From Candidatus Omnitrophota bacterium (GTDB taxonomy: Bacteria; Omnitrophota; Gorgyraeia; JAUYCX01), in assembly GCA_030692045.1 (NCBI GenBank), contig JAUYCX010000119.1:25688-89687 (forward strand): a DNA stretch of 64,000 bases, given 5' to 3'. This document shows positions 18,113 through 61,200 of this stretch, in pieces (the stretch's first letter is position 1; the number at the start of each line of letters is the position of its first letter). Below the pieces are notes generated by a model that was given only the letters and a program-made list of their open reading frames with translations, was not told the origin of the DNA and did not search any database. The translations under genes were made by a program, and so were the position numbers.

Positions 18113-18982
18113 ATGATAATCCTTATTACATTATTAATTTTTATGGCTGTATTTCTTCTGGTGTACTTTATTCTCTCTAAAGGCAAAACTGCTGATATTA
18201 AACCGCCTACACTTCCCTTGGAAAAGGAGATAAGTTTTGAAAAGAAAGGGTTTATGCGTAATTTATTTTCTCACATTTCACTAATTAATAAACCCTTGGC
18301 TGGAGCATTTAGGTATGGCTTATCACGCAAATTATATTCGGCAAAAATAAAGATTTCCATAGAGGAATTTTTCCTAATTAAGGAATTACTAATTATAACT
18401 TTACTTGTTTTATTTTTACCAATGATAAAACAACTTAGCCCGATTTTTTATTTAGTGCCAATTATTGTGGGCTTTTTTCTGCCGGATATCTGGTTAATTA
18501 TGAAAATAAAGGCAATTAAGCAAGAGCTCGTAAAAAATTTGCCAGATGCCATTGACTTATTGAACTTGTGCGTAAATGCCGGCTTAGATTTTATGTTAGC
18601 CCTAAAATGGGTGATTGATAAATCCCCTGCCAATGCCTTAATTGATGAATTAAATTTGGTGATGCAGGAGATTAATTTAGGCCGTCCCAGAAAGGATACC
18701 TTAATTGATTTAGCCAAAAGATATGATATTGCAGAGTTATCTACATTTAGCCGCACCTTGGTTCAGGCAGACAGGATGGGCACCTCAGTAGCCGAGGCAT
18801 TGAATATACTCTCTGAGGATATGCGCTTGAGTAGATTTCGTCTGGGAGAGCAGATGGCTTTAAAGGCGCCCATAAAATTACTTTTTCCGCTTTTGGTTTT
18901 TATTTTTCCAGTGGTAGGGATTATTATTGGCGCGCCGATTATTTTACAATTTTTGCAGACAAAGACATTTAGCGCGTTTTAG
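18113..18982 (+). CDS. tadC: Tad inner-membrane platform protein TadC (start re-assigned from 17987)
   Basis: LPDAIDLLNLCVNAGLDF...EINLGRPRKDTL...QADRMGTSVAEAL...KAPIKLLFPLLVFIFP. Confidence 0.9.
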   Translation: MIILITLLIFMAVFLLVYFILSKGKTADIKPPTLPLEKEISFEKKGFMRNLFSHISLINKPLAGAFRYGLSRKLYSAKIKISIEEFFLIKELLIITLLVLFLPMIKQLSPIFYLVPIIVGFFLPDIWLIMKIKAIKQELVKNLPDAIDLLNLCVNAGLDFMLALKWVIDKSPANALIDELNLVMQEINLGRPRKDTLIDLAKRYDIAELSTFSRTLVQADRMGTSVAEALNILSEDMRLSRFRLGEQMALKAPIKLLFPLLVFIFPVVGIIIGAPIILQFLQTKTFSAF

Positions 18983-37200: not shown

Positions 37201-40200
37201 TGGATTATCTGGCGAATTGCGCGTCAAACGAATTTCCAATAATGAATTGTTACCACTTGAAGCTATTAAGGCAATGGATGGGGCCAGAGCCTCTCGACGA
37301 ATTCGAGCCGATGGCAAAGAGGTGGCAGTTCTTTATCGTGTCATTAGAGGAGATGAAGAAACTCTTAAAACATTACAGCATCAAGGCCTATTTTCTCCCG
37401 GTTTAGTGGCCTTTAATGGCGACAGACAGAGACTCTATGAACAATTGAATGAACGTTTTATAGGAGGATTAAGAGACCTTGACATTTCCGATCTTCTGGA
37501 TCTTAGATGGGACTCTGCTATTATAGGAGACCAGCATAATACTATCATAACCCCGCTTATGTCGTTTACAGCAGATCCATATCGTACCAGGTCTTTCGGA
37601 ACATATAATCCAGGAGATAAACCCATTCAACGTTTCATTGTTGAGTTAGAGGTTCCCGTTGATCGAATCATTGAGCTAAAAGAGGAGAAAAGAAGTCGCT
37701 CTCTCACACATATCCGCAACGCGATTAGAAAACTTTCTTCCAACCATCAGTATTTATTCGTCCGTGCGCCTGACCAATACGAGAGTGAATATACCTCTTT
37801 GACGGAGCATATCCCAGCAGAATATATCACAGGAATATATGTGGATACATTACCGCCATCCGTCGCCGCTCAGGCAATAAAGGCAGAAGAACTTGCCCGG
37901 CCTCCCACAACGCCACCAGCCGCGCAATCTCAACCAACACCGCAAGCTGTGTCACAAGATGATCTGGAAAAGTTTATTGAGAATATGTCGCCAGAGCAGG
38001 TTAAAGCGGCTTTCTCTGATATTATTCCAGCTCCTAAACTTCGAGAAGCAATAGCCAAGCCTTCTCAAAGAATGGATATTTTCTTAAGGCATCTTACACA
38101 TAATCAGATTGCCGTCAAAGCAATGGGTGGCAGAGCCCCTGGCGAAATTTCTGCAGTATTGCCAGTTTCAGAGGTGCAGAGCATTCTTTCTCAAAAAGGC
38201 TCTGCACATTTAAGCAATGAAGAAGCAAAAACTTTGCTTGAGGCATTTGTGAGTGCTGATAGCCATCAATTAAAGGCAAGAATTTTAAGAAGTTTAATCA
38301 GAGCTAACTCAATCATCTCATTTGAAAAATTGCCAGCAGAAAATAGGCACGCCTTACGAATGGAATTCGTTAGGACTTTTAAACAAACCTCAGATGATGA
38401 TTTAAGAGGGATGGTCATAGACTATTTTGTCAGAACACATACTGGTCTTCTAAAACAACAGTTAAGAGCGCAACAACAGTTGGAGCGCTTAAGCGATGAA
38501 GAACTATTGCAGTCTGCAAAGATAGCCTTACACAAATCTTTATTGAGTTTAGATGAATCTACTGTTGAATTTAGCTTAATGCATTGGCTTAATCGAGTTA
38601 GAAATGAATTACGCGCCGAAAGAGATAATAGATTACTTCGCACAAATAAGAGTCGAGAAAATTCAGGATTGGGAAAATTGAGAATTGAGTCTCTCGATGA
38701 CCTAATGCATGTTGACGATGAACGAATTTTAGCTGATGTTATTGCAGATACAAAAGCTATCCCACCAGATGAGCAAGTTAAGATAGCCTCTGAACAGGCA
38801 CGCCTTAGAGCTTTAGTTGCTGCAATACCCAATGCCCAAGAACGCTTGGTCTTAGGTTTTCGTTTAGGTATTTATGGAAGACTGACACTTAGAGCAATGG
38901 CAGAGATTGCCGGTGTCTCATACGAACGCATCAGGCAGATAGAAAAAAGCGCAGAACAAAGGCTAAGGAAATTAAAACTTGCTGATAATGTCTCTAAGGA
39001 GCCCATTGACGCTGGGGAGATTTCCCATCCCATTCAGGCGCTTAAAGATGCTTTTGCACCAGCAAGAGAAATAGCTAATAATAACCGAAAAATTCAAGAG
39101 AATTTTAGCCAAGAATTTGAAACGCGTTTAACTAAAGCACGATGGTATGAGCAAAGATTTAGAGAAGAGCCAACAATACCTACTCTTCATAAATTAACTG
39201 GAATTTCTATCTCGACCCTGCGTGACCATAAACCTGAAGTTGAACAGGTTATTAAAAGATTATTTGAATCTCCCGAAGGTGCAGAAGTTGTAGTAAACAA
39301 GAGAAAACAAGTTTTACCAGATATTCGCTTACTAAGCTTATTAAAAGATGACAAACAACGATTAGTATGGGGGCTACATTTTGGTTATTATACTAAAGAC
39401 AGAAAGACTATGCCGCTAAGGACTATTGCAAAAATAGCCGGAGTCTCAGAAGCAAGAATAAGAGAGATAGATAAAAAGGCAGGAGAAAAGTTGGCAAGAC
39501 TAAACAGGCTATATGAGATAGCTCCAGAGCTTTACTCAGGTATGGCCCCAGAGGTTTTCTTAGATGTAGAGCCTATCGAGGTCGTTAGAGAAGTTTTTGC
39601 CCCTGAAAGAGAACGTGCTTTTCCCAACATATTAAGAACTCGTTTAACTGAGGCAATAACTGAGGCAATACGGAATCAAACCATATCTTCATCAGTTGTT
39701 CTTACAATACCTACTCTCAATAAATTAACGGGAATTCCTATAAATACACTACGTAACCATCCCGAAGTTGTTAAGGAAGTATTAGACAAATTTGGTTTGC
39801 AGGTAAGAGTAAGAACGTATAAAAAAGAATCACCCAAAGTTTATGACTTAGCCGCAGGTCTGGCTTTGCCGGTTTTAATCCCTGGGGCAGGTATTTTTAT
39901 CTTGGCTGGACTATCAGCTGGAGGATTAGGATACTTGGCTTATAAAGCAGTTAAGAGCGCTCAGGCAAAAAAGGCAGAAAGACTTGCCCGGGCGCCCACA
40001 ACGCCACCAGTCGCGCAATCTCAACCAACACCGCAAGCGCCGGCTGTTCAAGCGCCCGCGCCGCCAAAAGATTTTAGCGGTAGTGATTTTGGACAATATA
40101 CTTCTGACATAACTGATCGCGGTCGTTTAAAGATTATAGATGATTACATTCTAAAGCAATTATCCCAAAATCCATTAGGAAACAAGCCTTTAATTATAGA

Positions 40201-43200
40201 TGTTGGCATTGGCGCCAGGGCTTTAGGAGATGCTTCCGGAGTTCCTTCGCCTACTTTCTTTGAATTAGCTGAACGGTTAAGAGAAAGATTTGGTGCCGAC
40301 GGCTTTACGCTCGTGGGTATTGATAATAATGATTCTATTGTGCAGGAAGCCAATAAGCATATCGCAAAAATGAGGCAGGATGATTCTAATTTTCCTACAA
40401 ATATCCAAGTTATCCACGGAAGTTTCTCCACCGCTGCCCAGCAGTTTAAGGGCAAGGCTGATTTAATTCGCAGTATGGCAGTACTCCATTACTATGATGC
40501 TAATACGCGCAATCAATTCCGTTCCTATCTATCCGAAGCGCTTAAGGAAGGAGGTAAATTTATAGAGGGAGGTTTTAATTACTCTATAGTTCACGAAAAA
40601 GATAAGTCGAGGTTGACACCAAAAACATTAAATGTAAATTTAGAGGACCATAGGATTTCTGGTTATGTTGTTGGGATTATCCCTGATGCCCCTCAATCTT
40701 TAATGCCTTTATTAGAAGAAATTTCTAGAGCAAGAAGTAGCTTTAGTTCTTCACTCCCTGTAACCTCACCGATGTCCAATCGTGAAGTCGCCATAAAAGT
40801 AGCGCCTGACGTAGCTCAAAGTTTAACTTATGACAGGTATATGGTTAGTAATCCTTTACCTGGTTTCCTTTCTTTTAATTTGGATGATACAGGCGAACTG
40901 CAGCAATCAAGCCGCCTAGATGCAAAAGCCTATTTTATTCATACAGAATTACAAAACGAATTTAAACCTGCTGATTTTAGAGCTTATACGCAGAATTTAC
41001 TCACAGCAGCACCTTTAAAAGAGCGAATCAATGAAATGGTAAGAGCTAGAGCAGATCAATTCTATCCAAATGAAGTTACTTTCGAACTTCTTTTCTCCAG
41101 AGTTGATAAGTTTATTAGAGATAGTGCAGCTGAAGCAATAGCGCCACCGCCTATTGCACCGCTGGCTGCCCCTGTGCAAACTGCCTCTCCTTCTCCACAA
41201 ACCGCCAAACCCCAAAAACCCACAGGCACAAATGTGGAAATGCTCGGTTTGCAAACCTTGTATGAATGGTTAGCCTATTATACAAAATTAGCTATTAAGA
41301 GCGCTCAGGCAAAAAAGGCAGAAAAACTTGCTCGGGCGCCCACAACTGAAGCAAAAGAAAACACGCCCCCATTCTTCGATCCAAATGTAAATTATACCCG
41401 GCCGCTCCCAAATATTAATGAAGTAATATCATCTTTCATGAGTGACCTTATATTTAATCAATCTCTGGAATTAAAGCTTAAATTCTTAGATTTATTATTC
41501 CCAAGAGATAGAAAAGAAATGGCTAAATTTTTTACACGAGCCCTATTAGTAAGCGGAGAAACACATGGCGGATTCGCTTCTGCGCAATTTAACAATCGAG
41601 GCGTTACCTTAGCCGAGTCAGGAGACTTTGAATCAGCTGTCCGCGATTTCAAACGCGCTATCAGCGCTGACCCTACCAATACTCTGGCTTATCGTAATTT
41701 AGCAAAGTTATTGCTTAGACAAGGAAAGGCCTTTGAGGCATCACGGGCTTTTGTTAAATCATTCCCTCAGCCCCCTGAGTCACGTAGAGTAAAAGCAGAA
41801 AAAATTGTTTATCTAAACGGCAGAGACTTGGCTTTGCTCTTAGGTTTAGCAGGATTATTTGCTTCATCGCCAGCTAAAGCTCAGACAGGTAGCGTGGGTG
41901 ATAATATCGTGGAGGGCATTGACCAAGTAATTTCTCAATGGCTGCCAAATCATGCAGATTTTGTGTTATGGGCTGGAGCAACCTCAATAGTTCTTAGCTC
42001 AATTGCCATATTTAGTTTTGTGGCTTGGCGGTTTAGAAAATCCGCTGGCCTTAAGTTTTATCTAACCACACCTGCAGGAAAAATTGATTGGAAAGCAACC
42101 ACCAGCGCAATTATCATTGTTCTGGGCAGTATCCCACTTGCGGGCTTAAGTATTGGCGCTGTCAAAACAGCACTTGAGGCTCAAACATTTTCTCCAGAGG
42201 CAAAGGCTTCTGCTGCAGAAATATTGGGTCTAATAGGAGCGGTTTTGCCTTTAATAACTGTTGGCTGGATTGCCATTGATAAAATCTGGAATAAGACCTT
42301 AAATATGATTCGAGGAGATTCTCAACCTTCTAAGCGGCCAAAATCCGGTTGGGGAAAGAATTTACTCATTCTTGCAGGTTTGGCAGGTCTTTTTGGCTCA
42401 AGCCAGCCGCCAGCAAAAGCAGGCACAACACCTGATACTTCTCCAGCGCCGAGGGCTAAAACAGAAGAGATAATTTACCCGACTCAAAATATTGATATTG
42501 CAAAGGCTCTTACCGACTTCTCTTCAATGCTGATTAGTTTAAATGATTCAGGCGCGCTTACACCTGAGCAAATGGCATTATTAGAGGAATATAATAATAC
42601 TACTATTAATTCAGTTCCTGAAGTAAGAATTTTGCTTGAGCAGATTAATTCTCGCTTAAGTTCAGCTTCTGCAAAGGTAGATACAGTTTTTGTGAATTTG
42701 GATAAAACAACCGTAAGGGACCTTAAACTTGGTATGAAGGTGGCATTTACAACCAGGTTAAACGGTAAGCAGATTGGAGATCCTCAGACAGGAACAATTA
42801 GAGAAATCAAAAGAGGCCCACCTATTGGAGAATTCCGGAATCGAAGCGTAGAAATTACTGTTGAAACAGATCCTTATGAAAAGGAATTTAACTTTGATGG
42901 TTTAAAATTTAAAGCAAAAATGCCTTCATTTGAATTACCCTTCACTGCTCCTCCAAACCAAACCCTAAGACAAGCTGGTTTTGACAAAGTCTATGAAATT
43001 ATAACTCCGGTCCAGCCAGCACCGGTTGATTCAACTCTACCTGTCTTGCCTGATTCTCTTGACAGCAGAATTAAGAAATTAAATATAGAAGAATTCAATC
43101 TGCTTTTGCAGGTTGCTCCTTCACCAGTAAAAGAATATTTATTTAGGGTGCAAGAAGCACAGATGAAAGGAATGATTGGTTTGGTTAATTGGTTGGAATT

Positions 43201-46200
43201 ATCAGCCAGCAGTAATGGCTTAACTTTACCTTCTTTTGAGCAAGCCGAAGAAAAGAGGCAAGTTATAATGTTAGCACTTAGGCACCAAGAACTTGAGCCC
43301 ATACGAACAGAAACTTTAAATAGAGCCTTAGAATACATTAGAGATAACTTTACTGAATTTTACAGATTTGTAATGGCTAATTTAGATGCGTTAGAGTTAG
43401 ATCATAATGGTAAGAATGATTTCTATTATCGTATAGGTGAAAGAGGCAAGGTGTATTATCCTGAGGCAACTTTAGGTCAAAGGCCTGCAGTTATCGCAGC
43501 TAGATTATTCCATGAAGTTATACACAGCTATTTCGATAGAATATATGGGGAAAATTCAGCAATTGGGCCTTGGGGTGAATATAGCGCAGACCTCTTACAG
43601 GATATGGTTGCGAAGTATGAAAGCAGGCTCCAAGGTGAAAAGGATTATTTCTCGGTTAAGAGATTAGAGCCTGAATCAAGGTTTCATTGGGGACCCTCGT
43701 TTGATGCCTGGATGACTGCGAATGCAGATAGTTTATCTAAAGTCTGGCCAGAGTCTGTGCGTGTCAGGTTAGCTCAGATACATTCTGAAAGAGCGTTATT
43801 AGAACAGATGTCAAAGTTAGGTACAGATACCCAAAAACAGCGTCCGCCTGAGCCGCTAAAGCCAATTGAACAAAAGAAAGCTAAACAGCAATCGCCAACT
43901 GATATTCCGAGTGGCTCACAGAAGGGTCAATCTAAGCCATCAGATGAGAGTGCTTTGCCGGCGCCTGAGCCTTTTGGCTTGCCAGTTGCACCCATAAATC
44001 TATTACTTATTATTCCTCTATTCTTAAGCAGCACAGGCAAAGGTCTAAAGACAGTGTTTGGCATACGAGAAGCATTTGCTCAATCAGCGCCTTCAGAAAA
44101 TAATCTGGCTGAAATTAATCATTCTAAGCAAGCTCAAAATAACATTGGAATTGGAATTGGACCTCGAGGTCCCACCATAAGAATGCAAGCCGGCATTCTC
44201 GCAATGCCGCGCCTTGCAACAACAGAAGCGCGAGAAAATATCACAGATTACACAGATTCTCTCTGTGAACAATCTGGTAACACAGATTACACAGATGTTG
44301 TAGGTAATCAAGGCCAAGTAAGATTGCCAGTGCTTTTGGCAATAGTGGGTTTAGGCTTAGCTGTAAATGCCATAGGCTTAATACCGGCAGTAATAATTGC
44401 CATAGCAGTATTAGGATTTATCTTAATTAAGGCCAGAGTTACCGAAGGTGCCACAGGTTCTGAAACTACATCTAACAGAACTGGTGCATCTACAAGTGCA
44501 ACTGGTTCTAAGGGTGCATCAACAGGTGCAACATCTAAAGCAGAAACCACAACTGCTAATACTAATGGCTCTGGTTCTCAAAAGGGTCAGACAGTAAATA
44601 AACCTTCATTCAGCGAAAGATTAAGAGTAATTAAAGCTCAAGCAATTCGCAGAATAAAGGATTTTGTTGTTTATCGTGCTAGAGCTCCAACGGCGCTTGC
44701 TCATAGACTTGTTTCTTCTGCAATTGTCATTCCTGAACACAAAGACCTCGCAATTCCTTCCTTAAATAGATTCAAAGGCAATAATCCTACAATTCTTGGC
44801 CGGCTTTTAGGCTTTATCTTCAATGATTTAGCGCACATTATAAACGGAGAATTGAATTGGGAGCGTTGTATTTTGAAAGCTGGTAAAGCCGGCGGCAAGT
44901 TAGCTGTGGTTATTTATCCTACCTATGACCACGATGGAAGCTTTAATCCCGGTGAGTTAGAAAGGTTGGTCAAAGAGTTAGCAACCAAAGGTTACCGTGT
45001 AATAGGCGCGCGTGTCAGTTCGGTAAATGAGCTTATTAACGCGGTCTTGAATTTTACACAACAAGAAGCTGCTTCATTGTTATTCATAGGCGGACACGGA
45101 AGTCAATATTCTATTCAATTAGGAGCAGAGCTTCCTCTTGTTGAAGATAGCAATAAGTTGACGATATATAATCTACACCTTCTTTCTTTAGCGAGAAAAA
45201 GCTTAGCTAATAATGGCGTTATTGTTCTTACGTCTTGCAAAACTGGAAAAGGAGGGGTTGGTGGGTTCAACATAGCCAATGAGGTTGCAAAGGTATTCTC
45301 ACAGGCAAAGCATATTTTTGCGCCTGAAGAATCACCGTATGGTGCTGTTACTTGCGAATTGATATTTGATGACAATAGTGATGTTATGGGAGTTAAGTAT
45401 GATTACCTTGGCTCTGTTAAAGATTATTATGATGCAATAACCAATAGAAACTCAGAACCCGATTTAATTCAAAGAAGAGAAAGAATTCACAGCCTACTCC
45501 CCTATATTAGAGAAATAATTGCTCCAGCGGTGATTATTATGGTTATAGCTTTATTCTTTGGCGTTTCGCCTGTTTTGGCAGGTCCCGTAGTTGCCGGCGC
45601 AACAGTTGTAGTTGGTAAAGGTGTTTTAATAGTAGCATTGAAAATGGTTTTAGCAGTTGCAGTGGGTCTGGCTATTGCCAGAATGTTTAGCAAAGGCGCA
45701 CATTCCGTGGCAGTGCGTTCAATAAAAGGTCTGGCTGGTCGTTTTGGCACCCCCTCCGCCAAAACCGACCGCCAGGCCTCTTTTAGAAGGCTACCTTCAC
45801 TAAAATCTATAACTAATATAGTTCTATTCTTAATGGCATTATTCTTGGTGCTTCCTGCAGTGCAGACAGTTCTGCATGAATTAGGACATGCCATTGTCTA
45901 CATGCTCATCGGCTTTTCACCACATCTCTATATGGGCAATGACCTTAAATCTTTGATTTCTTTAGGAAATTATTTTCAATTTAATATTCAGGAGCCTTTT
46001 GAGTGGCTGGGCAAATTGCTGGATACACGCGGAGCTGTAACTGCGCCAATTGATATAAATGCTTCCCAAGAAGCTGTATTGCAAATAATGGAAAAAATGA
46101 AGCATCAGCCCAAATTCGTTTTGTTCTTACTTAATATCTCAGGAAGTTTGCTTAGGGCATTGGTTATCTCACCCATTCTTTATTTCTCATTTAAATTGGC

Positions 46201-49200
46201 ATTCCCGCTTAGGTTAGATGAATATGAAAGTTTTAGAAATGACTTAACTGAAACGGCCTTAGAAAAATTAAGAAGATGGGTTATGTTTGTTCCGTTGATA
46301 ATAGGTTCAACAGTGATACTCATTTCAGAGGGAGCATATGTGTTTGTGGTAGGAGATAAAAATTCTGATTGGGTGCAGGCTGCACAAATTTCAGGCCTGC
46401 CACGTGCATTGATAGGCTTAATTATCTTACTGCCGCTTGTTACACTTGTTGCTTACGACATTATCAAATTTGTTAGAGAGGAAATTAAACAGAATAAAAT
46501 TATTGCTCAGTTTGAAAAAGGCGAAGAAAAGGGAGGTGCAAAATGGTTAAGATTAATTTACAGGAACTGGAATTTGACCACTTGGTTGAATTCAGCAAAG
46601 ACCGCACAATCTTTGCGGCAGCTCGCCAGAACGGTAGCGGCCACATTAGGCTCTTTCTTGTATTCCAAGACAATGGCAATGTCTACACCAGAAATGGCAC
46701 AGCAGACAGCTGGGAACAGCTCTTTGGCCAAGATGCTGAAATTGTTAGTGGCAAAATTACTCTCGCTCTTAACAACCATATCCCGGTTTACAAAGTCAAC
46801 GGCTCGCACGCTTAAAGAGAGTAAGCGAGCCGTTGACTCTTCTCGCGTTATTGAACTTACAATTGTAGCTCTATCGCCATTCCTTGTAGGGTTTAGCCAA
46901 GGAACAATCATTGCCGTTGTAATTCCTCTTGTGGCTACTTTCGCACTTTTACTCTATCTTAAACATCGTGCTGGTATGTTACCTTCCACAATCGCCCTTA
47001 TCTTAGGTGTTGGTATTGGGGTATCATTATGGCCGTTATTGTCTATCGTTATTAAATCACAACAGCCGATTCTTTCTCAGATAGCACAATTAGGATTAGC
47101 TTTATCCATTTTGGGTACTATCTTAAATGGATGGAGATTAAGACAATTAAGCAACCTCTCAATTTCTAAACTTATCGCGCCTTATAGTAATGATGAAGAC
47201 CAAACAACACTGCGCCAGCAATTCAAGTCTAACAACCTCTTCCAATATTATGCCAATGCTGTGATAATTGCAGCAGTTTCTATGGTCAGTAGCGTGATGC
47301 TTTTGTTAGTTAATTTACATAACCTCAGTGCGCAGTCATTAACTGCGCAAGGTTTAATCTTGGCCAAGATTGGTTTTGCGATGACAGTTGTGTCTTTGGT
47401 TATGGGCAATATTATTTTCCATAGAGCCGCAATAAGACATCAACAAGGATTAGTCACTACCGGCCTCTATTCTAAGGTAAGACATCCGATTTATTTAGCT
47501 TGGCTGGCGGGAATTTTAGGTATAGTGATGATGTTTCCCAATATTTACTCAGGTTTGTTCTTTGTAACCTTCCTAATTACAGCCAAGACAGAAGCCGTTA
47601 AAGAAAACATTGGTTTGTGGCTTGAGTATGGTCAAGAATATGCTCAATACACCCATAAAGTTCCTGCCTTAGAGCTGAGAGTTTTGAGGTTAGTGAAGAG
47701 AATACTGCCGTTTGTGATTATTGCAAGTGTTATTTTTGCCAACCCTGCCTTGTCAGCGCCAATGATAGATGTATCCCATTCCAACATCTGGGATATCTTA
47801 GGACCGATTAGCATATTGGTTTTCTTGGTGACTATGGCAAATGACCCGCCAAATGATGAGCGAAAGCCACGACGAGAATTTGGAACGAAGGATGTGCAGG
47901 ATCGTTTTCCAGACCTTGTTTCTGCTCGAACAATCGTCTTTAAGTGGAGGGCCCTTTACAAACTTGATTATGATGAAATCTGCTCTATTCTTGAGTTCAT
48001 TCAAGGTAACTTAGGGTGGTGGGAGCAGTTGGCGCACTCCGAGCCAATGAGTGGCACGCCATATAAACAAATCAAAGGTTTTCCAGCTATGGCCAGGGCT
48101 TATGAGAAAGTGGACCGAAGCTTTCAGATATTGCGAGGGCTCATCGAAGTCGTGCAGGAGGCCGTAAAGGAAGTTGAGGAACAGGTGGGATTCAAGAGCC
48201 TACCTCAGTCTTGGCGGTTTACTATGTTAGCGCTAGCTGCGAAAACATTGGATGAAAAACACAGTCTGGACGCTGTTCGGGATCATCTGACTGATGAGTA
48301 TATTAGGCGATTCGAGGAACGCAGTGAGAGCAGAGGTCAAAGGCTATGGAGCCATCCCATTGTGACCTTGGTTGCTGCCTTAATTACTCTCGCCTTGATG
48401 TACCCAACATCAGGTGCGGGCGTTGCAACAATAAGCGCAAATGGTTTGCCAGCGTTTATTACTAAAGTTGTGGTTATTTTAGGTATTCTAATGCCTTTTG
48501 GCCTCATTTTAAATAATAGGCCAGAAGAAAATAGATGGATAAGCGAGATAAAGCAAAGAATTGCTGAAATTGCCCAGAGACATCCTCGACAAGTAAAAGG
48601 TTTGGTAGCTTTTGTGGTTATATTCTTTTTGGAAAAATATTTGAGGCAAGGTATCGCAGAAAAAGTCGCAGCTGAAATCCAGGGTAGTCATAGACTAAGG
48701 GATTTAGAGACATTTCAACAGATACAGGGAGAATTCATAGAATATTTACAATCACATTCAGCAAGTCTATTGACCGCAATGGGTATTTCAATGTTTATAG
48801 ATGAAATTCAGAGAGACTTAATGGCTCTTAGAATATTAGCCGATAGCATAATTAATGAGGCATTGGCAAGAGATGTATCACTGCAGGGTCAATTAAGAGT
48901 TTTATCTGAGTTAACATTAAGGCATCTACAATCACCTTCCAATCCAAGAATACAACGAATAAATAGAAGCGCTTGGCGTATTGAAGTCGAAATAGCCAAG
49001 ACGCTGGGAATTTCTGAATGGTTATTTAGAGAAGGATGGGGGAGGGATTATGGCATTGAGCCAAGAAATGAGCCTCCTGCTGGACCTCAAGCTGGCGCAG
49101 TGCGGCACATAGTTGTGTTTCCTTTGATTGCTGTAGTGGGACTGGCAGGATTGTTGTTGACTGCAAGCGCAACTGTTGTTGGCACAGTGTTGCTTAGCGT

Positions 49201-52200
49201 TGCAGTGATTACAGCTCTTACGCTGGATTGGTTAAGGGACAGTCCCTATAAGTTACATAGAAGAGGGACTGTCCCCAAACTCTGGTCAGGCAAGGTTAGT
49301 CCTGCCCAAGCGCCGCCAACCCCTATTTCTCGCAAACCCTCACCTCTTGATCCTCGCTATGCTGAATTAGAAAACTACCCTCCAGAAATACTTCGCAATA
49401 TTGTCTTAAATGTATCTACAACAGAACCAGAAAAACCGCACCGCGTCAAAGGATTACTCTCCAGAATAAAGAAAATTTTCTTTATTGGTATATTATTACT
49501 AATTAATCTCTTTGCCGCAACAGCTCAAGGCGCGCAATTCTCAATGGATGCAACTGGTAACTTGTCTGTGCGAGTTGAATCAGGCGATACATTTGGAGGA
49601 ATAGTTCCAAAGATTAGAGGTACTCAACAGGTGGTTGCGCCTGAACAACGTCTTCCTTTATTTGTCGGCTCACTTTGGGGTCAAGATGGTGTTGTACAAA
49701 AGGTTTATGGAGAAATTAAACAGTCTAATCCGGATTTTGTGGATATAGATAAGATTCGTCCGGGACAAATAATATATTTACCCTTAGATTTGCCAGAATC
49801 TGTTAAACAAGCACTTGCTCCGCAACTTATGGAAGCTCTACCCACAGTTTTGGTAGCCGCTTCAAAGCCTGATTCATCAAAGGTTAAACCAGAAGCAGTT
49901 GCTGTTGCTTTGCTTGACACAGTTAAGATTGGCGCTACGGTTAAAGTGGTTCCAGATGCCCTTACCTATCCATCTAAAGTTAATCCTCCATCAGCACAGC
50001 ACATTAATTTAGCAATGGCTCTAATTGTAGGCGTGGGTCTTATCTTAGGAATTGCCATTGCCCAGTCTTTAAAATCCAGAATTTCCCGAGAAAAACCTGA
50101 GTTTATGAACATAGCTCCTGCGCCTATTAGCGCTACACATACAAGTGAACCAGCAGTTGCCACAATAGAAGAAGTACCAGCAGAAGCAAAGGCAGAAGCA
50201 GAGAGTGTGAGCATACAACCTTGGCCGACTGAATATGTTCCAGCTGTGGCGCCAGTTAATGCTGATGTTTTGCGTAGAATAAAAGAAGCCTTAGATTCTC
50301 CAGACACCAGATATTTAGAGCGCATTCGCGATGTAGAATGGCTCATTGATGATTTAAAGGCAATGCAGCAATTACTTGCGCCCGAGGATATTGAAGAATT
50401 AACACAATTATTAGAAAGATGTTTAAAAGATGATAGGCCGGGTTTAAAGATGTTAGCAATCGCTACTATTTTGAATTTGGGTTTACGGGCGACTAAAGAA
50501 GAAGCTGTCGAATTCTTAAATCACCACAAGAGAGAGTTATTGCCTCAGGTGAGAAAATTAGAAGCAGAAAGTAAAGTTTATCTGGAAAAAGCCCAGGCCT
50601 TTAGAAAACAAGCAGAGACAATTAAGGGGTTGGATGAATTAGATAAAGCCCGAACCGCCCAAGTAAGATTTGAGGAATTGATGTTTATTGCCGGCTGGAT
50701 AGGAACAGCTTTGGAAAAGATTGCTTTAGCAGAAGTTGCTTCAGAGGTTACTACAACAATGACTGCGGACTTAAGGCAAAACCCCTCCAATGACCTTAAG
50801 TCCGCAGAAGCAAATAAGCCAGGAGTTGAAGGCTTTACAACAATAGAAGTTAGCTTTGCATTGGCAATCTTGACAGCTGTTTATTTAATCAATCCTGTTT
50901 TGGGATTAGGTTTAGGCGCTGTTATGGTAGTTGCGGCTTTGGCAGCTAACAGAAGAACAGGCCTTAGGCGAAGTCGAAGCATTACCGCATTAGTGGGAGC
51001 TTTGGTAATATTATTATCTTCCCTTAATATTCAGGGTTGTGCCATGATGAAGCTTGGTAACACAACCCATCCAGACTATTCAACCGCAAAAGTGGATAGA
51101 GCTCTCTATGAACATCGTGGAGAAAACCCAGAAAACAATGCAACGCACCCTGATACAACTTCAAGCCAGCCAGTAGCTTTAGAAACTGAAATTAAACCTG
51201 TTAAGAGAACAGAAGTAGGGACGTCTTTGACGACCATCGGAAGGGTGTCCCCTGCAAAAGAAGTTAGGGACAGCCTTAGCTTGAGAGAGAAAGACGTCCC
51301 TACTTCAAACCAAGAAAAAACTGCACAGCCAATTAGAGCACCGCCAGTTAAACAAGATAATCCGTCGCCTCAAACTCAATACATAGTCAAAAAAGGTGAT
51401 ACACTTTGGAGAATTGTTGGTGCACAATGGCCAACAGTTTACAATGCCAATCCAGAAATCCAGAATCGTCCCGGCGAACAATTGGGTCCTCAATATCCTG
51501 ACACAAAACAAATCGTAATTATTTATCCAGATGAAATTTTAACACAGATTACACAGATTGAAACTACAGATTACACAGATACTGCAACCGCAAGGGACGC
51601 AAAAGAAAAAACAGAAGAAACCGCGGAAGCCGCAAAAGCTCGAGAAGACTCACTTAAAGCTGAAAAGGCAAAACAACAAGCGCAAGCCCAAGCCAAAGCT
51701 GAGCAAGCCGAAAAAGAGAGACAACATGCACAAGCCGCAAAAGCAAAACAAGATTCAGTTGAGACTGCAAGAATTATAGCCGCCAGACAAGATTCTTTAG
51801 AGGCTGCTAGAATGGCTGCACAGGAAACAGCTCAAGCCAAGGCTGATTCATTAGAAGCTATAAGAAGAGGACAACAATTTGATTTCTTAAAAAAGATTAA
51901 GCTTGCGTTATCTTCAGCTTTTGGTTTTAATCCCATATTTTTATGGGGCAGTTTATTTGTCCTTGCTTTAGCTTTAGTAGCTTATCGTATGCGAATGAAG
52001 AATGAGGCAAATGGCATAGCTGTTAACTCTGCTCCTAAACCTGCATCCAGAAGAAGAGTAAAAATTGATGCCTCCAGCGACCCAGTTAGTCCAGCTGTAG
52101 TCAAGCCACAACCAGCACGCAGAGCCACAAGACCCCAGTCTCGAAAATCTGCATCTAAGAAATTGCATCAACTGTTTAAACACAAAACCCTTGCTTATCA

Positions 52201-55200
52201 ATTAAAAAGCTTAGCTTTAGATTTAACTCCTTTTGCCTGGTTTGTCTTGGCTAAGTCAGCCAATATAGAACATTCTTGGTTAGCTTTGCCAATTATTGGT
52301 CTAATAAGATTTTTGGTTGTGTTTAATATGGTGACCAGCCACGAATCTGCGCACGCCAGTCAAGCTCTTGAGTATGGTGATACTACAGCAGATAGAATTA
52401 GCAGAAATCCTTTTACTCATCTGTATTGGAGATCCCGCGATGGCTTACCTGCCTTCTACAAAGTATTTTCCTTTATGGGCTCTACATCAATGCTTATTAC
52501 CTCTGTAATATTTGGCTTGCCTTTGGGTTTTGGTTCAGCCAGGCCAGTAGTATTTAATTCTAAACCAGATTATCAGGTAAGAAAGATAAAATTTGCTGGT
52601 CCAAAAATCAATTTAATTCGGGGACTTGTGGCTCTCGCTTTAGGCGCGCTGGCAGTAAAACTTGGCTTAGCTTATCAGGAATATTACATTCCAGTTTTAC
52701 AATACATCGCAATATTAGAGCTTATATATGCAGTGTTTAATTTAATACCTTTGCCTCCTGCTGACGGAGCTGTAGCGCTTTTTGGTAAAAGGGTTAATCA
52801 ATCATTAAACATTGGTGGTATGAATATTCCTGCCAATACCTGGGGTATTGCTGGATTAATTATTCTTTTGAAAACAGGAATTTTATTTAAGCTTTTTGCC
52901 GGCATTTTATTATTGGTAAATTATTTTATGCCCGCAGAGGCAGGATTATCCAGTTTAACCGATGGACTTATCAAGGCATCAATCATCACTTATATATTAG
53001 CTCATGCAGGGATGTTGGTAAAAGGAATTGCAGAACAGAAATCAGGGACGTCTTTGAAGAGCATCGGAAGGCTGTCCCTTTCAAGAGGTGTAGGGGACAG
53101 CCTTAGCTTGAGCGTGAAAGACGTCCCTAATTCAATGCTCAGGCAGCAGGCAGCTGTAAAGAAATTGTTGCTGTTAGCAGTTACAGGCTCTTTGATGTTA
53201 ATTGCTCAGCCAGCTTGGGCTGACACAAATCCTGGCTCGTGGAGCACTGGAGAAAATATTCTTGCCTTTGGGGGTATTTTGCTTGTGGCTCATCTGGTTT
53301 TGCGTTTCATTGTGAGCCTGATTGCCAAATTCAAACCCAGATTTACTCAAAAACATTTATTTACAATTCTCTTGCCATTTATGTTAGCGGTTAATCTCAA
53401 TTTGTCTTGGTCGCTAAGGCATCTTAATACGTTCTTTAGTTATTATTTCGCAAACCTTACTGATGCGGCGCTGGTGGCTAATGTTATTTTGGCTATTCGT
53501 GAAATGACTTCCAAACGATTATTGAAGCCAAGCACGCTGGTTAAATTCATTGGTTTGATATGGGTTGGTTCTATCATTTTTGAAGTAAGTTCAGGCTTAC
53601 AAAACTGGCTGGCACTTCACTTGATGGATAAAGAAATAAGACTTGTTTTCGGCCAAGGAGATATCGTAGCTTATGGCGCAGGTTTGTTATGGTTCTTACT
53701 GCATAGTTTACGCCAGCGTGCAGTAATTAATGCTAAGGTTCAAACTGTAAATAGAAGAACTTCCTCTTTTGTAAGACCAAGACAAAGCTCTCGTCGAGAC
53801 TTTGCTAAAGAGCTAAGAAACAATTTACCTTTTGGGCTAATGGTTCTCTTTGGCTTGGGTGTTTTGGCTACAACCTATTTATTTAATCCCACATTAATAT
53901 CTACCTTGGGCTTGGGTTTGATTTTTGGTTTAAGCAAAACAGATAGTGGTTCGCAGGATGAACATCACCACAGAGAATTAAAAGAGGCAAACGAATGGGT
54001 TGAAGAAGCGCGTCAGCATAGAAAGAAAAAAGAATATCAGGGTGCCATGGAATCTTATGAAATTGCAATAGAGCTTTATGGAATTGTAGCCAGTGGTTCT
54101 ATTGTGCCTACTGTTCAAGAGACTGCCCGTGGTAATTTAGCCCATGCTCGTAGAGAACTCCAGTCAGTTTTAGCCCAGATTGAACAGGCAATGTTAGATT
54201 TCATTGCTGATAAATTTGCTTATGCCAAAGCGCAGAAGGGCATTCGTGATTATGCTGCATTTAAGAGAGATTTAGAAGAAGAGCTTCTGAAAAAGGAGCC
54301 TGAAGGATTAGAAGCAATTTCTCAAAAAAGAAAACAGTCTATTTATAATAGCTCAGAAAGAATTAGACAAAGGTTAAGCCAAATCAGAGCGCCCGGCGTA
54401 TCCACAGAAGTGATACCGCGCAGGGTAGTTTATCAAATAAGAAAAGCATACTTTAATGAACTTTATGATGGCATTCACGCTGGGATAAAATCAATTTTCG
54501 TTCCCTTAGGGCAGAGAAGTTACTCTATTTCTGGTATGCTTTTTGATATTTTGGGAAGGAGAATTCCTGATAACGAAAGCGCCTTAAAAGCCTTATTTAA
54601 TGATGTTAACTTTAAGGATTCTATGGGTAAAACTCACCGTGCATTAGCTCGTCGGCTTAGGAAATTTGAAAGAGGAGAATTAGAAAAAAGCAAGGCAGTT
54701 CTTTACGATATTGCGGCATTAATCATTCGCGCAAATACTCGATTAGTTGAGGCATATCAGGGATTAGTTCCTGATTATGAATTGCCAGAAGTTGAGACAG
54801 TTAAGAAAGCGCCTAAGCCTACAGAGGAAGTTGTCATTCCTGATGCAGAGATAAGAGAGATTATTTTAGAGGCAATAGAAGAACTTTACAAGCTAAGAAG
54901 TAACTATGCAGAATATAGACTTTTCTATGAAGAGATTATCAGAGTAGTTAGTCAAGCTTTAGAACAAAGAGGGGTGTCTGAGGCAGGCAAACAAGTTCAA
55001 AGAGTAATTTCTCGCTCAAAGCCTATTAAAAAACGTTTAGCCCAGATAGAGCGTGAATTCTTAAGGCCAGCAAGAACAGAAGCAGTTGGGGGATTTGTAG
55101 ATTATTATGCAATTTTAGGCGTGGAAAAAGGTCCTTTAGCTAATTCCAGAGAGATTAATCGAGCCTTTGATGGTTTACCCAAAGACAGAAAAACTGAGCA

Positions 55201-58200
55201 AGCCTACAACGCCTGGAAGGCCTTACATGACCTTATAAAATCTAAACAGCAACCATCAGATAGACTTTCACCCAAACAAGCATATGACGAAGAATGGTAC
55301 ATCTTGCACCGTGAAACACACTTATCTTGGGCAAAGAAGGTTGATGCTAAATTAGGCACACACTATCTTGACAAAATTAGACCTCATAGAGTCAGAAGAC
55401 ATTTAGGCTTGATTGTACCTTTCTTATTGGCAACAGGATTGTTGGCGTTGTCAGTAGACAGAGTCTTTGGCGCAACAGAGAATTCTAATGGAATTTTTGA
55501 AATCAATTCCAATCTGATAACGCTCTCTATCGCGGTTATCATAGGCGTTGTGTTGATAGACCAACTTTCTAAGTTAATCATCAGGCTGAATTTGTCAGAG
55601 ATTATATGTGAAGATGAAGGGGATACGTATGTTCCTTACACAAATAAATCCCAACCATTTTCTAAGGCTATCATTCCAGGCGTATTGGACTTGGTGAATA
55701 TTAGGCATGCCAGAGAGAAGCTTTCAACTCAATTATCGCTCATGAGTTTATTATTAAGAATATTGATATTGGCCGGACTTTCATCTGCCATAGTGTGTGT
55801 TATTCAAGGCAATGGTAGAAAAGCCATTGTAGTTGGGCTTAGCTTAATGATAGGGGCAGCAATAAATGTATTATTTGACGATCTTAGAACTAAACCTCAA
55901 GGCTCAACAGATTGGATTCTGTTATTCGAGTCGCCGCTCTTTACTAATCTCTCTGATATTTTTGTAGATGCGAGTATAGCCTTAATCACAGTATCCCTTG
56001 TTGGCGTTGAACTTCTTTTTCCATCTTTTAAACCGCTACTCAACAATAACAGCTTCGTTGCCATTGCTACTGCTGGCTCAATTTTCGCAGCATTGGCATT
56101 TACTATTGGCAAGGCCCGATATTATTACTTCTTGGTGAATAGTCACAAAGAAACGGTCGTAATCGATGAGGCATTTTCCAGAATCTTGCGTTTCTTAGGC
56201 AAGGGCGGCAAGGCGCTTCGTATTTTGATTCCGTTTATCTTTATGACAATTGCCTCTGTCGGCAGGGCATTGGCTGGAACAGGTAATGCTATATCAACTC
56301 ATCCTTGGATATGGCTTTTAGTTGTAGCAGCTTTTGCTATTGTGGCTGGAGTTTATCCAAGAAATTCAAAAGCTAAACAAAGAGCTGATAGGACACCTAT
56401 TAAGCCACATGCGCCACCGCTTATTAGAAGACTAAGACAGTTGCCTATTGTCTTATTAGTTCTCTTACAATTAGCAACCGCACCTTTAATCTATATCAAC
56501 TTTACAAGGGATGTTTTTGCAGAGCAATCCCAAAACACAACCACAATTCTTGTTAGAGGTCCACCGGCATTAGTTAAGACAGAAGCGGGTTACTTGTTTG
56601 TTTCCCAAGAGGGTAAACCATCCTTACCTTTGGGTGGCGCTGCTTGGTTACTTAGCATTTGGCCGCTTTTGGTAGGGATAGCAATAGTTTTAATTCCATT
56701 ATTATACAGAACAGGAATTATTGTAAGAATAGTTAATGCCACCAAAACAAAGGCACAGGTTAAAGTTGCACCAGTAAGGGCAGGACCAGAAAATAAAATC
56801 GAGGAAGTTCACAAAGACAGTCCTGCAAGCTCACCCTCCGCACAAGCTGCATTTCTCGAGAGAGGTTCCTACCTTAAGTTAATCGAAAGATTGGCAGATA
56901 CCAGTGATGTGTCGCAAGCCACTCTTATGCAGGCATATTTAGACGCCAGAAAAGAACTCTATGAAGCCATTCAGTCAGAAGATGCAAAGTTAAGACAACA
57001 GGCGTTAGATATTTTTAGCTTAGTACATCAAGCATTAGAGATTTCTACTGTATCCAATGTTAGCCTACGGTGGGTTCATACCTTAAATAGATTTCAATTT
57101 GTGCATTGTAATATCTGCGGTTCGGAAGCTCATCTTCCCATCAGTGTATTCTTTATCAATGGTGTGGGTTTTGATATTGATCGATGTCAAAATTGTGGAT
57201 TATTCTTCGTTAATCCTCAGCCTTCAGATAGATTTTATACTGAGCTATACAGTGAAGAATATTTTACTTCAGGCGACGGTCAGGTCGGCTTTAATGGTTA
57301 TGAACACTCCAGAAGAACTACTATCGCGCGCCTACAATTAGATACGTTACAGCGATACGCGGAAAGAATCAGAGATTTCCTTGAGGTAGGAGGTGCTACG
57401 GGTTATGTATTAAGAGAAGCAAGAAATCGAGGTTGGAAGACCAAGGCGGTGGAAATTTCTGATTATTGTGCGGGTAAACTCAGAGAACAGGGTTTTGACG
57501 TCTATCAAGGTAATTTAGAGGAAGCTGGATATTCAGATGAAAGTTTTGATGCAATGGCTGGCTTTGACTTGTTAGAACATGTGCGCAACCCGTTTGCTTT
57601 CTTGAAAGAGGCAAATCGTATTTTAAGAAACGGTGGTCATATTATTCTGAGGGTTCCTCGCGTCCCTGACACTACTAAAGGACCAACTGTCCATTTAATT
57701 GATCATCTTTATCACTTTACGCCGGATAGTATTATTAAGTTATTGGAGCGTGCTGGCTTTGAAGTGGTAAATGTAGAAGATAGTGGCGCTTTCTATTCAG
57801 AAGAAGGCGTAGGCTTAAATTTAACAGTGGTGGCTTATAAACTTGACCCAGTTGGTTCTAAGCCAAAGATAAATGCAGTTAATTTACGCACAAATAGAGG
57901 CAGTTCCAATATTCATTATTTACTCGCCTCTGTTTTGACTCTGCCATTTTTGTTCTTACTAAATCGTTATATCTTTTACACAGCAGTTAATAATTTATTA
58001 TCACATAATCTCCTCGGTATACTTTCTTCGATACTTAATTTAGGCTTTTTCTACGTTCTGCTCTTCACAGCTACTTATAATATTATTACTACAATTTTGA
58101 TCCTCTTTGATTCAAGAACAAAAGGCTGGTTGAGTGAATCTAAATACGCCACCGCTATTCCCAAGTTTAAGCCCGAAGGTATGCCTTATCCAAGCCACAC

Positions 58201-61200
58201 AGTTATGGTGCCAGTCTATAAAGAAGATTGGGCAACTGTAAGAGAGACCTTGGATGCTGCCTTGGCAGCTACAACTAACTATAATCGGGTTGCCGGGGAA
58301 GGAAGAGGTAATATTGTTGTTTGTGATGACGGGCTGATGGTAATGACAAATAATCATCCTTTTGAGTTTATTGAGAGAGTAAAGGCAAAAAGAGTTGTAG
58401 GACTTGCTCTTACGCAGGTAGAACAGGAAGTTTTAAATCGGATTGAGTATTACCAGGCAAACAATATTACATGCGTGGCCAGACCAAAGCACCAGCCCGG
58501 TATATTTGAAAGAGCCGGACAATTTAAGAAAGGGACCAACTTAAATCACACTCATCTATTAGCTGATTTAATCGATGAATCAATGAATAGGGGTCTAAGC
58601 TATGCAGATGCGCTGGAAGAAGCACGCAATAATCCAGAATACAAAAACACCTTCATTATGGGCCAAGTGAACTTAGGAGAAGTAATGCTATTCCTCGATA
58701 AAGATTCCTTGATTGGCTCAGATATTATCAGAAAAGTTATGTCTGAATTCTTATTAGATACCCGTATCGCTGGTGTCGTAATAAGAGGCGCTGCCATTAA
58801 TGAGAATGAGAATGTTTTTACCTCTATTTATGGACAGGGAATGAAAGTATTCTTCTGGCCATTGACGAGATTATGGGCTAAATATGGAGCGAGCTTGTTT
58901 TATGGTAAAGGGTTCTTCAGGAGAGATGTATTAAGGAGGATAGGATATTGGCCATATAAGCAGGTTGCAGAAGACATGGTTGCATCTTTTGGCGCCATAA
59001 CGCTTAAAGATGAAGCCAGAGGAGAGAATTATTACTTTAAGTTTGTGGATTATCCAATGGAAGCGCTCAAAGAAGGTATACCCAATCGACCGGTGTCTGC
59101 AATTATTCAATTCCGTAAATTTACCTATGCTTCGCTTAATGCGGTTTTTCGTCCTCTAAAAGAGTGGTTACTGCATAGCCCATTCCAAAGAGTATTTATA
59201 GATCTCTTAAAAGATAAAGGAGTACGCTGGGAGCAGAAAATTCATATTCTTTATACATTTAGCTATTACTTGAACTCTCTATTTATCATTGGTGTTTTCT
59301 TTAAGCACCTTATCTTCTCATCGCTTTTGGGTATTCATTCCAATCATACTTGGCATTTGTTGTTTGGAATATTTGTAGGTTCTATACCATTTACTACCAT
59401 TACCATCGCTTCTTACATTAAAGCCTGGAGAGTGAATAGAGAGACATTCTCATCGGTTAAATTTATCGGAAGAATTATACCTCGCGCATTACTTGTTTAC
59501 TTTGCGTTAATCGTATTCTTCTTAGGAATGGGTTTCCATACCTTTACTTCTGCAAGTAACTACTTGGTATTTAATAAAAAAGTTATCTTTGGAACTACGC
59601 CTACAGATAAAGAAGATTTTCGTCCAGTTAGAGAGATTGCGTCCGATATTGCAAGACAGCTTAAGCCAGGACTTATTACAAGTTTAATTTATTTGGTCTT
59701 GGCTATCGTAGCCCTTGGTTTGGGCCGCTTCAATGCCACCGAGCTGTACTTGGTAGTTCCTGGCTTATTGAGCAGCGTCTCAGCGATTATCGCACCTTTT
59801 GCTTTTGATGCGCAATTGATGAGGAAGATACGTCAGGAAATAAAGAGTAGTGTTTCAAATTTACTCGGTAAGATATCTGATCGATTCGGTAGATTTAGAC
59901 TTGGACTTAGATGGAGACCTGGCGTTGAAATTAGCCCACAGCCAGTAATGGTGACAGAAAATTTATGTTTCAGGCCCAGAGTTATAATGAGAAGTCAAAA
60001 GGTAACGCCTATAATAAGGACTATTCTGTTTACGATACTGCTTAATCTTCTTCCTGCGAATGGCCGTTTTGTTACCCTAGCCGAAGAGCAAAATGTAATA
60101 GTTGTAGTAATGCCAACGCCGCAGTTGACAGAGCTAAAAACAATTGATACTAATGCAGCTTATCAGTGGATTAAATCCCAAATTCATCCTAAAACAGGAC
60201 TGGTAAGGTCATTTGAAAATCTTCCCAAGGAAGACCCATCTTTTGGCGTAACCTGGACGTATAATCAGGCGCAAGCTATACAAGCTGCGCTTGCCCAAGG
60301 CGATGTTAGAACTGCCGAGCGCTTAGCTAAAGCAGCATTGAGATTAAAGAAGAATAATGGCGCTTGGTTTGGCGCATATGTCACAGAAACCGCTGAAGTA
60401 GCCACAGCTCTTCCAGAACAAAAGACCAGCGCAGTTGGATTTAATCTGGCTATGGGACATTCTCTGTTAAATCTTTTAGAAAAGACAGAAGATAAAGACT
60501 TAGCCGCACAAATTATCAGCGCTGTTATGGATTTAGCAGGGTGGTTAAATTATTATTATCGTGATGAAGGTAAGTATGCATTTGTCACTAACGCAGAGAA
60601 TAATAATGGCGTGCGCACAGAATTTAATGAGCGCACCTTTGCCTTCTATTATCAGCTGTATAACCAGTTTAATAACAGGCAACATCCTTATAGGGCATAT
60701 TTAAAGGAAGCGATAAAGGTAAAACAAGCCCGGGAATTAAAGACAAGAGCAGATAAGATTGTCAAATGGCATCAAGAGAAGATGTACAACCAAGAAAAAG
60801 GCCGTTATGAAGCTGGATATAAAGATGCCGATAGTAAAGAACTCATTGAAGAACTTATCGCAAATCTTCCTAAAGATGACCCGCGATACTGGGCAAGAGA
60901 TATGTGGGGCTATCCGCAATACTTAGCTCCAATTATGGCATCTGTGGCAGGGCTTAATCCCCAAGATTTTGCCGGCGGACTGGATTGGCTCTTAGCCCAT
61001 CAATCTACCGTTGAAATTGACGGCAAAACCTATAAAGGTTTCCCGCGCTGGTTAGGCACTCCTTCTTTATGGGGTAAAGGCATATCAGAAGCAACTGTGG
61101 CTTTGCAATTAGTTGGACGCAACAAAGAAGCAGAAGAATTGTTATTGACATTATCTGCAATGCAGCAGGAAAATGGCAGTATCTTAGAGGCAGTAGGTGA

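Follow-up and report, generated by a model that had tools for sequence, protein, structure and literature searches.

The 64,000-nucleotide stretch analyzed here (G000:C51:25688-89687, where G000 is this Candidatus Omnitrophota genome; hereafter the window) is part of an Omnitrophota-type giant membrane-protein gene. Its protease-like modules are, judged on sequence, real homologues of small housekeeping or modular enzymes that have been joined in frame. At the same level, the catalytic motifs of its C39, caspase-fold and second M50 modules are intact, while in a module resembling signal peptidase II (LspA; Peptidase_A8, hereafter A8) the Asp dyad is intact and the substrate-binding part is remodelled. 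Cis-maturation of the giant protein is plausible, and the explanation we favour, with somewhat less than even confidence, is that the cell making the chain would thread it into its own cytoplasmic membrane, with cleavage following there. An earlier note on this DNA had listed candidate processing proteases and placed them at window 44900-56010, a range that sits inside the giant open reading frame (ORF). Its domain calls proved correct by Pfam, alignments and fold comparisons; what it concluded from them is weighed below.

A single frame opens at window 19244 and meets no stop before 64000, encoding 14,919 amino acids (aa) within the window. It stays open up to the contig end too and reaches at least 18,015 aa when counted from the first ATG. 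Omnitrophota giant genes have been described, in the text of a preprint by West-Roberts et al. 2023 (10.1101/2023.11.21.568195), as having an N-terminal C39 domain, many transmembrane segments and surroundings resembling the tight adherence (Tad) and type II secretion systems (T2SS). The giant ORF fits that description in its great length, its N-terminal C39, its many transmembrane segments and its Tad/T2SS-like surroundings, and its ~84 hydropathy-defined transmembrane-like segments crowd between aa 8,000 and 15,000.

The most eye-catching of the candidate enzymes, the LspA-like module, lacks residues needed by the normal enzyme but is very probably a true LspA derivative. It matched PF01252 over profile positions 2-140 of 142, with 32.1 bits in a 500-aa piece and 35.1 bits in the genome scan (cut-off 25). 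With hhalign, it aligned to 13 LspAs of the class at a probability of 89% and an E of 2.2e-6 over 120 columns, and MAFFT agreed. The dyad of Staphylococcus aureus LspA consists of Asp118 in the VVDF box and Asp136 in the FNxAD box, and 14 highly conserved residues are named alongside it in the text of the structural study (PMC6952399). The two Asp positions that had been read in TDWI and NLSD align exactly to Asp118 and Asp136, in columns that are invariant with the 13 LspAs. Asp21, Lys25, Gly102, Asp109, Asp118, Phe132, Asn133 and Asp136 are kept, and besides Phe and Asn the Pro of the PVF-N-x-A-D box is kept as well. An AlphaFold2 (AF2) model, computed from the alignment with the 13 LspAs, consisted of four long helices with a mean predicted local distance difference test score (pLDDT) of 70.5. 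Its top five PDB matches were all LspA chains (template-modelling score 0.45-0.58, E 0.012-0.17), with the next match at E 2.8. A protein-language-model look-up also led to signal peptidase II clusters (0.85), which we take as a lead only. The module shares with LspA (MEROPS A8; 6RYO/6RYP from S. aureus, 5DIR from P. aeruginosa) a four-helix membrane core, as modelled, the Asp and Lys of DQxxK, the first Gly of GGAxGN, the Asp of GNxxDR, both dyad Asp residues and Asn133. It differs in being embedded in a chain of at least 18,015 aa, whereas LspA is encoded by a ~160-aa gene beside ileS and lgt, in having no Asn52-x-Gly54-x-AFG box, and in carrying the conserved Asn one residue further from the Asp.

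That LspA is normally a small stand-alone gene, as the earlier note had it, was borne out: PF01252 was over its cut-off in 40 of 41 genomes, this genome included, always in an ORF of 147-211 aa, and in five further giant-bearing genomes it found stand-alone lspA genes alone. This genome possesses a normal lspA of 161 aa (125.7 bits) in an ileS-dksA-lspA-lgt arrangement, the neighbours being what we take from their translations to be ileS, dksA and lgt. An embedded PF01252 match was seen in two of the 46 genomes searched, one of the two under the cut-off. The latter is an A8-like half-domain (L042, G021:C90:6000-7800) in a frame of 3,142 aa that takes up almost all of a 9.5-kb contig. This half scored 19.6 bits with PF01252 and is 24% identical to the A8 module of the window; it keeps IDR, the Asp in ..DYW and NLPD, that is, both Asp positions and the Asn. 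A 2026 preprint (10.64898/2026.06.07.730766) also names signal-peptidase-II, without comment, as one of the Pfam terms for a giant of 147,155 aa.

Of the two M50 modules that had been proposed, the one called a canonical site-2 protease on the strength of HESAH...NLIPLPPADG stood up well, with H51, E52, H55, N184, P187, P190, D192 and G193 invariant in all eight aligned sequences. This second M50 module shares 41% identity with a module in an 18,252-aa ORF of genome G102 and 26-30% with modules in the giants of G027 and G021; with stand-alone genes of ~203 aa, this genome's own among them, the figure is 29-34%. Around 100 stand-alone M50 genes were matched in 401 genomes of the class, and elsewhere this genome encodes both a stand-alone M50 and an RseP-like M50. 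Stand-alone M50 proteins of the class (~200-220 aa) share the HExxH and NxxPxxPxDG motifs with the window module, but the latter is part of a giant chain. It also carries an insertion past the first motif, extends at its C-terminus in a way seen in the G102 giant too, and has PPADG in place of the stand-alone PPLDG. With PF02163 (cut-off 27.2), the second module scored 20.7 bits alone and 29.1 bits with neighbouring stretches, and a 4,500-aa piece with both M50-like parts scored 34.5 bits. The other proposed M50-like domain, the HELGH segment, is present but weak (Table 1).

The claim of additional HExxH domains held for the chain as a whole and less so for the range given. Five HExxH motifs were observed in 18,015 aa against 0.25 expected, with a maximum of two in 300 shuffles, at window 43511, 45875, 52340 and 61805 and at the contig equivalent of window 65570; just two of the five fall within 44900-56010. 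At E up to 0.01, Pfam left those at 43511 and 61805 unassigned. We also found an ICMT-like membrane methyltransferase module, absent from the earlier note, that lies between the M50-like segment and the lipobox region. It is over the Pfam cut-off (Table 1), whereas the NCBIfam isoprenylcysteine methyltransferase model gave 34.7 bits, far under its cut-off of 160. A related module is present in a 27,261-aa ORF of G389, and the stand-alone genes of the class encode ~220-256 aa.

The C39 peptidase was confirmed in the same ORF, outside 44900-56010, with 36.2 bits against a cut-off of 22 for PF03412 at ORF aa 195-278; this match spans just profile positions 45-127. Cys148 and one His are invariant in five of five giant N-termini, and the module is 31-42% identical over ~300 aa to those of other giants.

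For the His/Cys module, which had been assigned to clan CD and compared with the autoprocessing domains of MARTX toxins, Pfam returned sub-threshold matches alone: DUF4347 (E 0.014; 15.6 bits, cut-off 24.6) and CHAT (E 0.029; 14.2 bits, cut-off 24). Nine relatives were found in other genomes of the class, at 25-37% identity and with GGH and (S/G)C invariant, so that His71 and Cys118 are the same in all ten aligned sequences. The AF2 model (pLDDT 83.9, predicted template-modelling score 0.81) puts His71 after strand 63-69 and Cys118 after the hydrophobic strand 107-116, each at a strand end. Top Foldseek matches of this model were MALT1, CED-3, caspases and SAVED-CHAT (E ~4e-4 to 2e-3). VIA-align ranked Tce1 first (Z 12.0; root-mean-square deviation 2.7 over 140 residues), then SAVED-CHAT (11.2), with procaspases, a GPI transamidase subunit and legumain at 9-10. 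The MARTX comparison was apt, as the authors of the Tce1 structure align Tce1, in the text of their paper, to the C80 cysteine protease domains of TcdB and RtxA (PMC13323088). The module thus resembles clan CD peptidases in its alpha/beta fold, with His ending one strand and Cys ending a later hydrophobic strand. It differs from them in being 7-15% identical to solved structures by VIA, and up to 24% over shorter Foldseek alignments, and in recurring mostly within giant ORFs of the class. C80 domains are activated by inositol hexakisphosphate. A profile of ten sequences detected the caspase-fold module in 19 of 401 class genomes; ten of the matches had built that profile. Of the 22 profile matches, 15 are within ORFs no shorter than 4,891 aa and seven within ORFs of 469-1,695 aa. 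In the scan of genome contigs, the only relative was a partial 44-residue match in a Ruminococcus metagenome-assembled genome. The profile and structure check that had been proposed for A8, M50 and C14/C80/CHAT hence came out positive for A8 by Pfam and for clan CD by fold, with CHAT and DUF4347 sub-threshold and M50 borderline in Pfam.

Two internal lipoprotein-type signal peptides, which account for two of the chain's 30 cysteines, are candidate cleavage points. Both display a positive n-region, an uncharged hydrophobic run, a small residue at -1 and Cys at +1, and both lie more than 10,000 residues from the protein start, unlike N-terminal lipoprotein signals. A strict lipobox pattern, of published style but adapted to internal sites, found two sites against 0.1 expected, one of them a false positive, being the catalytic Cys of the caspase-fold module; a looser pattern found four against 0.8 expected. 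Site 2 fits the strict pattern, and site 1, with Gln at -2, fits the looser one alone. In 12 giant ORF pieces (eight other giants and four G000 pieces), Cys stood behind six of 407 signal-like contexts, with 1.88 expected. Clean lipobox-like sites were also present in G102, G027 and G000:C97, and G389 had a doubtful one. In G102, the site is similar to site 1 and likewise upstream of the M50 module common to both giants. A crude test found no Shine-Dalgarno-like motif ahead of in-frame start codons upstream of either lipobox (the start signals of this host may differ). Past lipobox 2 comes a Big_5 domain, and a weak partial LysM match (E 0.015) follows site 1. Big_5 immunoglobulin-like (Ig-like) domains are placed outside the cytoplasm. 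The A8 module does lie between the two lipoboxes, as had been pointed out, but at 1,500 and 2,096 residues from them, and its position between them therefore carries little weight.

A pair of 30-aa repeats, with the consensus GTSL..IGR...DSLSL..KDVP.S, was also observed in this region. They could serve in recognition or cleavage, or have arisen by a local duplication. The 12 giant ORF pieces contained no third copy, and a self-comparison with blastp-short gave no match.

The orientation of the A8 module in the membrane can be read in two ways. Loops rich in Lys/Arg precede the helix at aa 12053 and follow the one at aa 12271, which points to six helices between two cytoplasmic loops and would make the module inverted relative to LspA. 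The module's own loop between helices 2 and 3 has two positive charges and favours the normal LspA orientation. A stretch reading ..DYYAILGV.. at window ~55100-55280 (ORF aa ~11955-12010) resembles, by eye, the start of a J-domain; it had no Pfam match and no HPD. If real, this J-domain-like stretch would mark that soluble region as cytoplasmic.

In the explanation that we favour, the producing cell would insert the chain into its own cytoplasmic membrane, where the chain would be cut into pieces. The likeliest enzymes for the internal lipoboxes would be Lgt and the housekeeping LspA, and through their action a lipid anchor would hold the downstream Ig-like piece, perhaps also the LysM-like one, on the outside of the membrane. 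The membrane helices left behind could next be cleaved by the M50 module or modules, in analogy to the M50 enzyme Eep, for which the order Lgt, Lsp, Eep on lipoprotein signal peptides is established in the text of PMC4173765. Soluble linkers would be the targets of the C39 and caspase-fold modules. As for the embedded A8 module, a derivative that is specialised, attenuated or without catalysis, such as a binder of lipoboxes or helices, would be more likely than a standard signal peptidase II.

A more direct proposal would have the A8 module work as a dedicated signal peptidase II that cuts the internal lipoboxes in cis, which we consider unlikely, as we do standard peptidase activity of the module in general. 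The retention of both catalytic Asp residues, of Asn133, of the DQxxK Asp and Lys and of Gly102 would fit such an enzyme, as would a Pfam score over the cut-off across the full profile, the presence of lipobox sites in the same chain, the embedded half-domain of G021 and the Pfam content of the 147,155-aa giant in the text of the 2026 preprint. Several results nevertheless weigh against it. Both boxes that had been called diverged are indeed altered: Asn52-x-Gly54 is deleted within a 9-column gap, and in GNxxDR the Arg110 position is Asp. Val116 and Ala135 are both replaced by Ser, Asn106 is shifted by one, 14-18 residues are inserted behind helix 1, and overall identity to the LspAs of the class is 17-27%. 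Relative activities listed for LspMrs in Table 1 of PMC6952399 are 0% for R110A, 50% for R110K, 7% for N52A and 0% for G54P, so that the same changes would all but abolish the activity of a standard LspA. NCBIfam LspA models, with cut-offs of 200-321, gave at best 15.4 bits (cut-off of that model, 321). In the AF2 model, the cradle region has a pLDDT of ~46-54 and the loop with the first Asp is below 50, and the fold match is partly circular since the input alignment consisted of LspAs. A phmmer search of PDB sequences with the module gave no match at E up to 10, and a 216-aa query gave none at E up to 0.001 among 1.84 billion representatives. In 400 class genomes, the six non-self matches (16-17 bits) were short or stop-containing frames and are noise. 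The genome contig scan held no relative, and the surroundings of the module had no homologues among proteins of 5,500-17,500 aa or 1,053-3,005 aa, the length ranges searched. The lack of a detectable relative also counts against the favoured explanation, as do the poorly modelled catalytic loop and the partly circular fold match. Beyond the module itself, a normal lspA-lgt pair in the genome could cut the internal lipoboxes, embedded matches are rare, and hydropathy with the positive-inside rule leaves the orientation ambiguous, the last a point against the favoured explanation too. Further points against the latter are that the first M50-like segment and the Pfam score of the second M50 module are at or under threshold when taken singly, and that the lipobox enrichment is modest and comes from a pattern of our own making. 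The lipobox regions of G000 and G102, aligned locally, scored 60, which is not significant next to shuffles (mean 45.5, standard deviation 6.7). Self-maturation, as the earlier note had drawn it from enzymes and matching sites in one chain, is thus no more than plausible, given an A8 module without Arg110 and Asn52-x-Gly54, a normal lspA elsewhere, the distance to the lipoboxes and the ambiguous topology. A bolder version, to which we give little credence, would see a membrane polyprotein with part of its own lipoprotein-maturation line: an embedded, re-specialised LspA paralogue would cut lipidated internal signal peptides, M50 would clear the helices, and lipid-anchored surface pieces would be freed from a chain of at least 40,000 aa. 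The altered Arg110 and Asn52 region would then be adapted to internal rather than N-terminal sites.

At the other extreme, the modules could be relics or pseudoenzymes, that is, captured genes of small membrane enzymes that now serve as anchors or scaffolds and do not mature the giant. The loss of activity-critical residues and the lack of conserved relatives of A8, the barely recognisable first M50-like segment, the housekeeping LspA, stand-alone M50 and RseP-like M50 elsewhere in the genome, and the dominance of transmembrane segments in the region all agree with this idea. We nonetheless think it improbable: the second M50 motifs are invariant in 8/8 sequences, modules in giants assigned to other families included, the caspase-fold His and Cys in 10/10 and the C39 Cys and His in 5/5, and HExxH is ~20-fold above expectation. 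Motif retention across family-level divergence argues for selection on catalysis. Equally, the proteases could act on proteins or envelopes of prey or host cells and not on the giant itself, an alternative the earlier note had raised for prey envelopes. Published work ties such giants to predation and cell-wall attack (main text of 10.1101/2023.11.21.568195), the nearest fold neighbour of the caspase-fold module, Tce1, is a candidate type VI secretion effector, and soluble C39 and caspase-fold modules could be released. However, A8 and M50 are polytopic intramembrane enzymes that must share a membrane with their substrate, no sign of export of any module was seen in the data here, and matching sites, lipoboxes and transmembrane helices, lie in the same chain. 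Found to be without specific support for the polytopic A8 and M50 modules, a role as effectors is decidedly unlikely. Insertion of the chain into the producer's own membrane followed by cutting there, with Lgt and the housekeeping LspA acting at the lipoboxes, remains the explanation that we prefer, tentatively.

It is not yet understood how bacteria produce, export and employ proteins of 20,000-150,000 residues. Such giant genes, their N-terminal C39 and the idea of autoproteolysis are already in print, the last having been proposed for C39 and S8 domains in the text of 10.1101/2023.11.21.568195. Published work asks whether the giants act whole or cut and names no cleavage points. Two internal lipoboxes and the pair of 30-aa repeats are now candidates for such points, and the M50 module with intact motifs and the recurrent caspase-fold module are candidate enzymes. 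The window giant has in common with published 'Archaeovorin'-type Omnitrophota giants the C39, the transmembrane segments, methyltransferase domains and a neighbouring secretin, ATPase, T2SSF and RcpC. No mention of M50, caspase, CHAT, LspA, lipoprotein or site-2 was found in the main text of the 2023 preprint, and none of M50, caspase, CHAT, lipoprotein, isoprenylcysteine, PF01252 or PF02163 in that of the 2026 preprint (10.64898/2026.06.07.730766). Internal lipoboxes and the residue-level state of an embedded A8 module are thus not described in those two texts. What appears to be new is that residue-level state, the occurrence of internal lipoprotein signal peptides in giants poor in cysteine, the recurrence of a caspase-fold module and the M50 module common to giants of different families. 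If the internal lipoboxes are used, the giants would be a source of lipid-anchored surface proteins by a polyprotein route, of which the main texts of the two preprints make no mention.

In viral polyproteins, host signal peptidase cuts at internal signal sequences. The giant would be analogous to these in being one long membrane-threaded chain with internal signal peptides marking cleavage points and with proteases of its own. It differs in being bacterial and chromosomal and in having sites of lipoprotein type and not of type I.

Table 1. Positions of the features discussed, in window coordinates
Feature	Position	Strand	Details
Tad/type II secretion-like locus upstream of giant ORF	414..18982	+	RcpC/CpaB, secretin, CpaE-CpaF-like ATPase, two T2SSF
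Giant ORF	19244..64000	+	no 3' end in window or contig C51; at least 18,015 aa, 30 Cys, ~84 hydropathy-defined transmembrane-like segments
C39 peptidase module, N-terminal, behind N-terminal hydrophobic segment	19685..20077	+	Cys148 to Pfam end aa 278
Caspase-fold His/Cys module (clan CD; C80/CHAT-like)	44900..45454	+	His in GGHG, Cys in LTSCKTG
Weak M50/M50B-like membrane segment	45854..46597	+	HELGH at 45875; PF02163 E 0.0054, PF13398 E 0.25, 15.4 bits
ICMT/PEMT-like membrane methyltransferase module	47357..47569	+	PF04140 30 bits, cut-off 24
Internal lipoprotein-type signal peptide 1 (putative)	50945..51040	+	Arg-rich loop, hydrophobic run, ...NIQG / C; Cys aa 10599 (window 51038)
30-aa internal repeat, copy 1	51218..51307	+	19/30 identical to copy 2; ~60 aa past lipobox 1
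M50 module, site-2-protease type	52190..53113	+	HESAH at 52340; NLIPLPPADG at 52739-52768
30-aa internal repeat, copy 2	53045..53134	+	overlaps last ~70 bases of M50 module (C-terminal extension)
LspA-derived Peptidase_A8 four-helix module (very probable)	55538..55999	+	aa 12099-12252; TDWI Asp 55910-55912, NLSD Asp 55955-55957
Internal lipoprotein-type signal peptide 2 (putative)	62183..62287	+	Arg/Lys-rich loop, hydrophobic run, ...LFTG / C; Cys aa 14348 (window 62285)
Big_5 bacterial Ig-like domain	62639..62941	+	PF13205 50.7 bits; ~120 aa past lipobox 2

This genome also has open frames at the edges of contigs C76, C97 and C52 (14,198, 5,502 and 5,012 aa) that may belong to the giant gene as well; the length of the gene would in that case exceed 40,000 aa. 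SecA, a divergent DEAD domain of which is a trait of Omnitrophota giant genes, gave no match at E up to 0.01 in the part of the giant ORF within the window. Further Pfam content of the giant ORF, at window 31244-44743 and 55244-63997, comprised RamC_N, Sigma70 region 4, TPR repeats, several S-adenosylmethionine methyltransferase domains and Big_5. The Tad/type II secretion-like locus upstream is broken up by several ORFs that had no Pfam match and by an IS200/Y1-type transposase at 6677-7363. Cysteine is often extremely scarce in the giant ORFs of the class, making up 0.014-0.24% of residues in eight of 12 pieces, with two Cys in the 13,992 aa of G132:C11 and 30 in the 18,015 aa of the giant ORF of the window.

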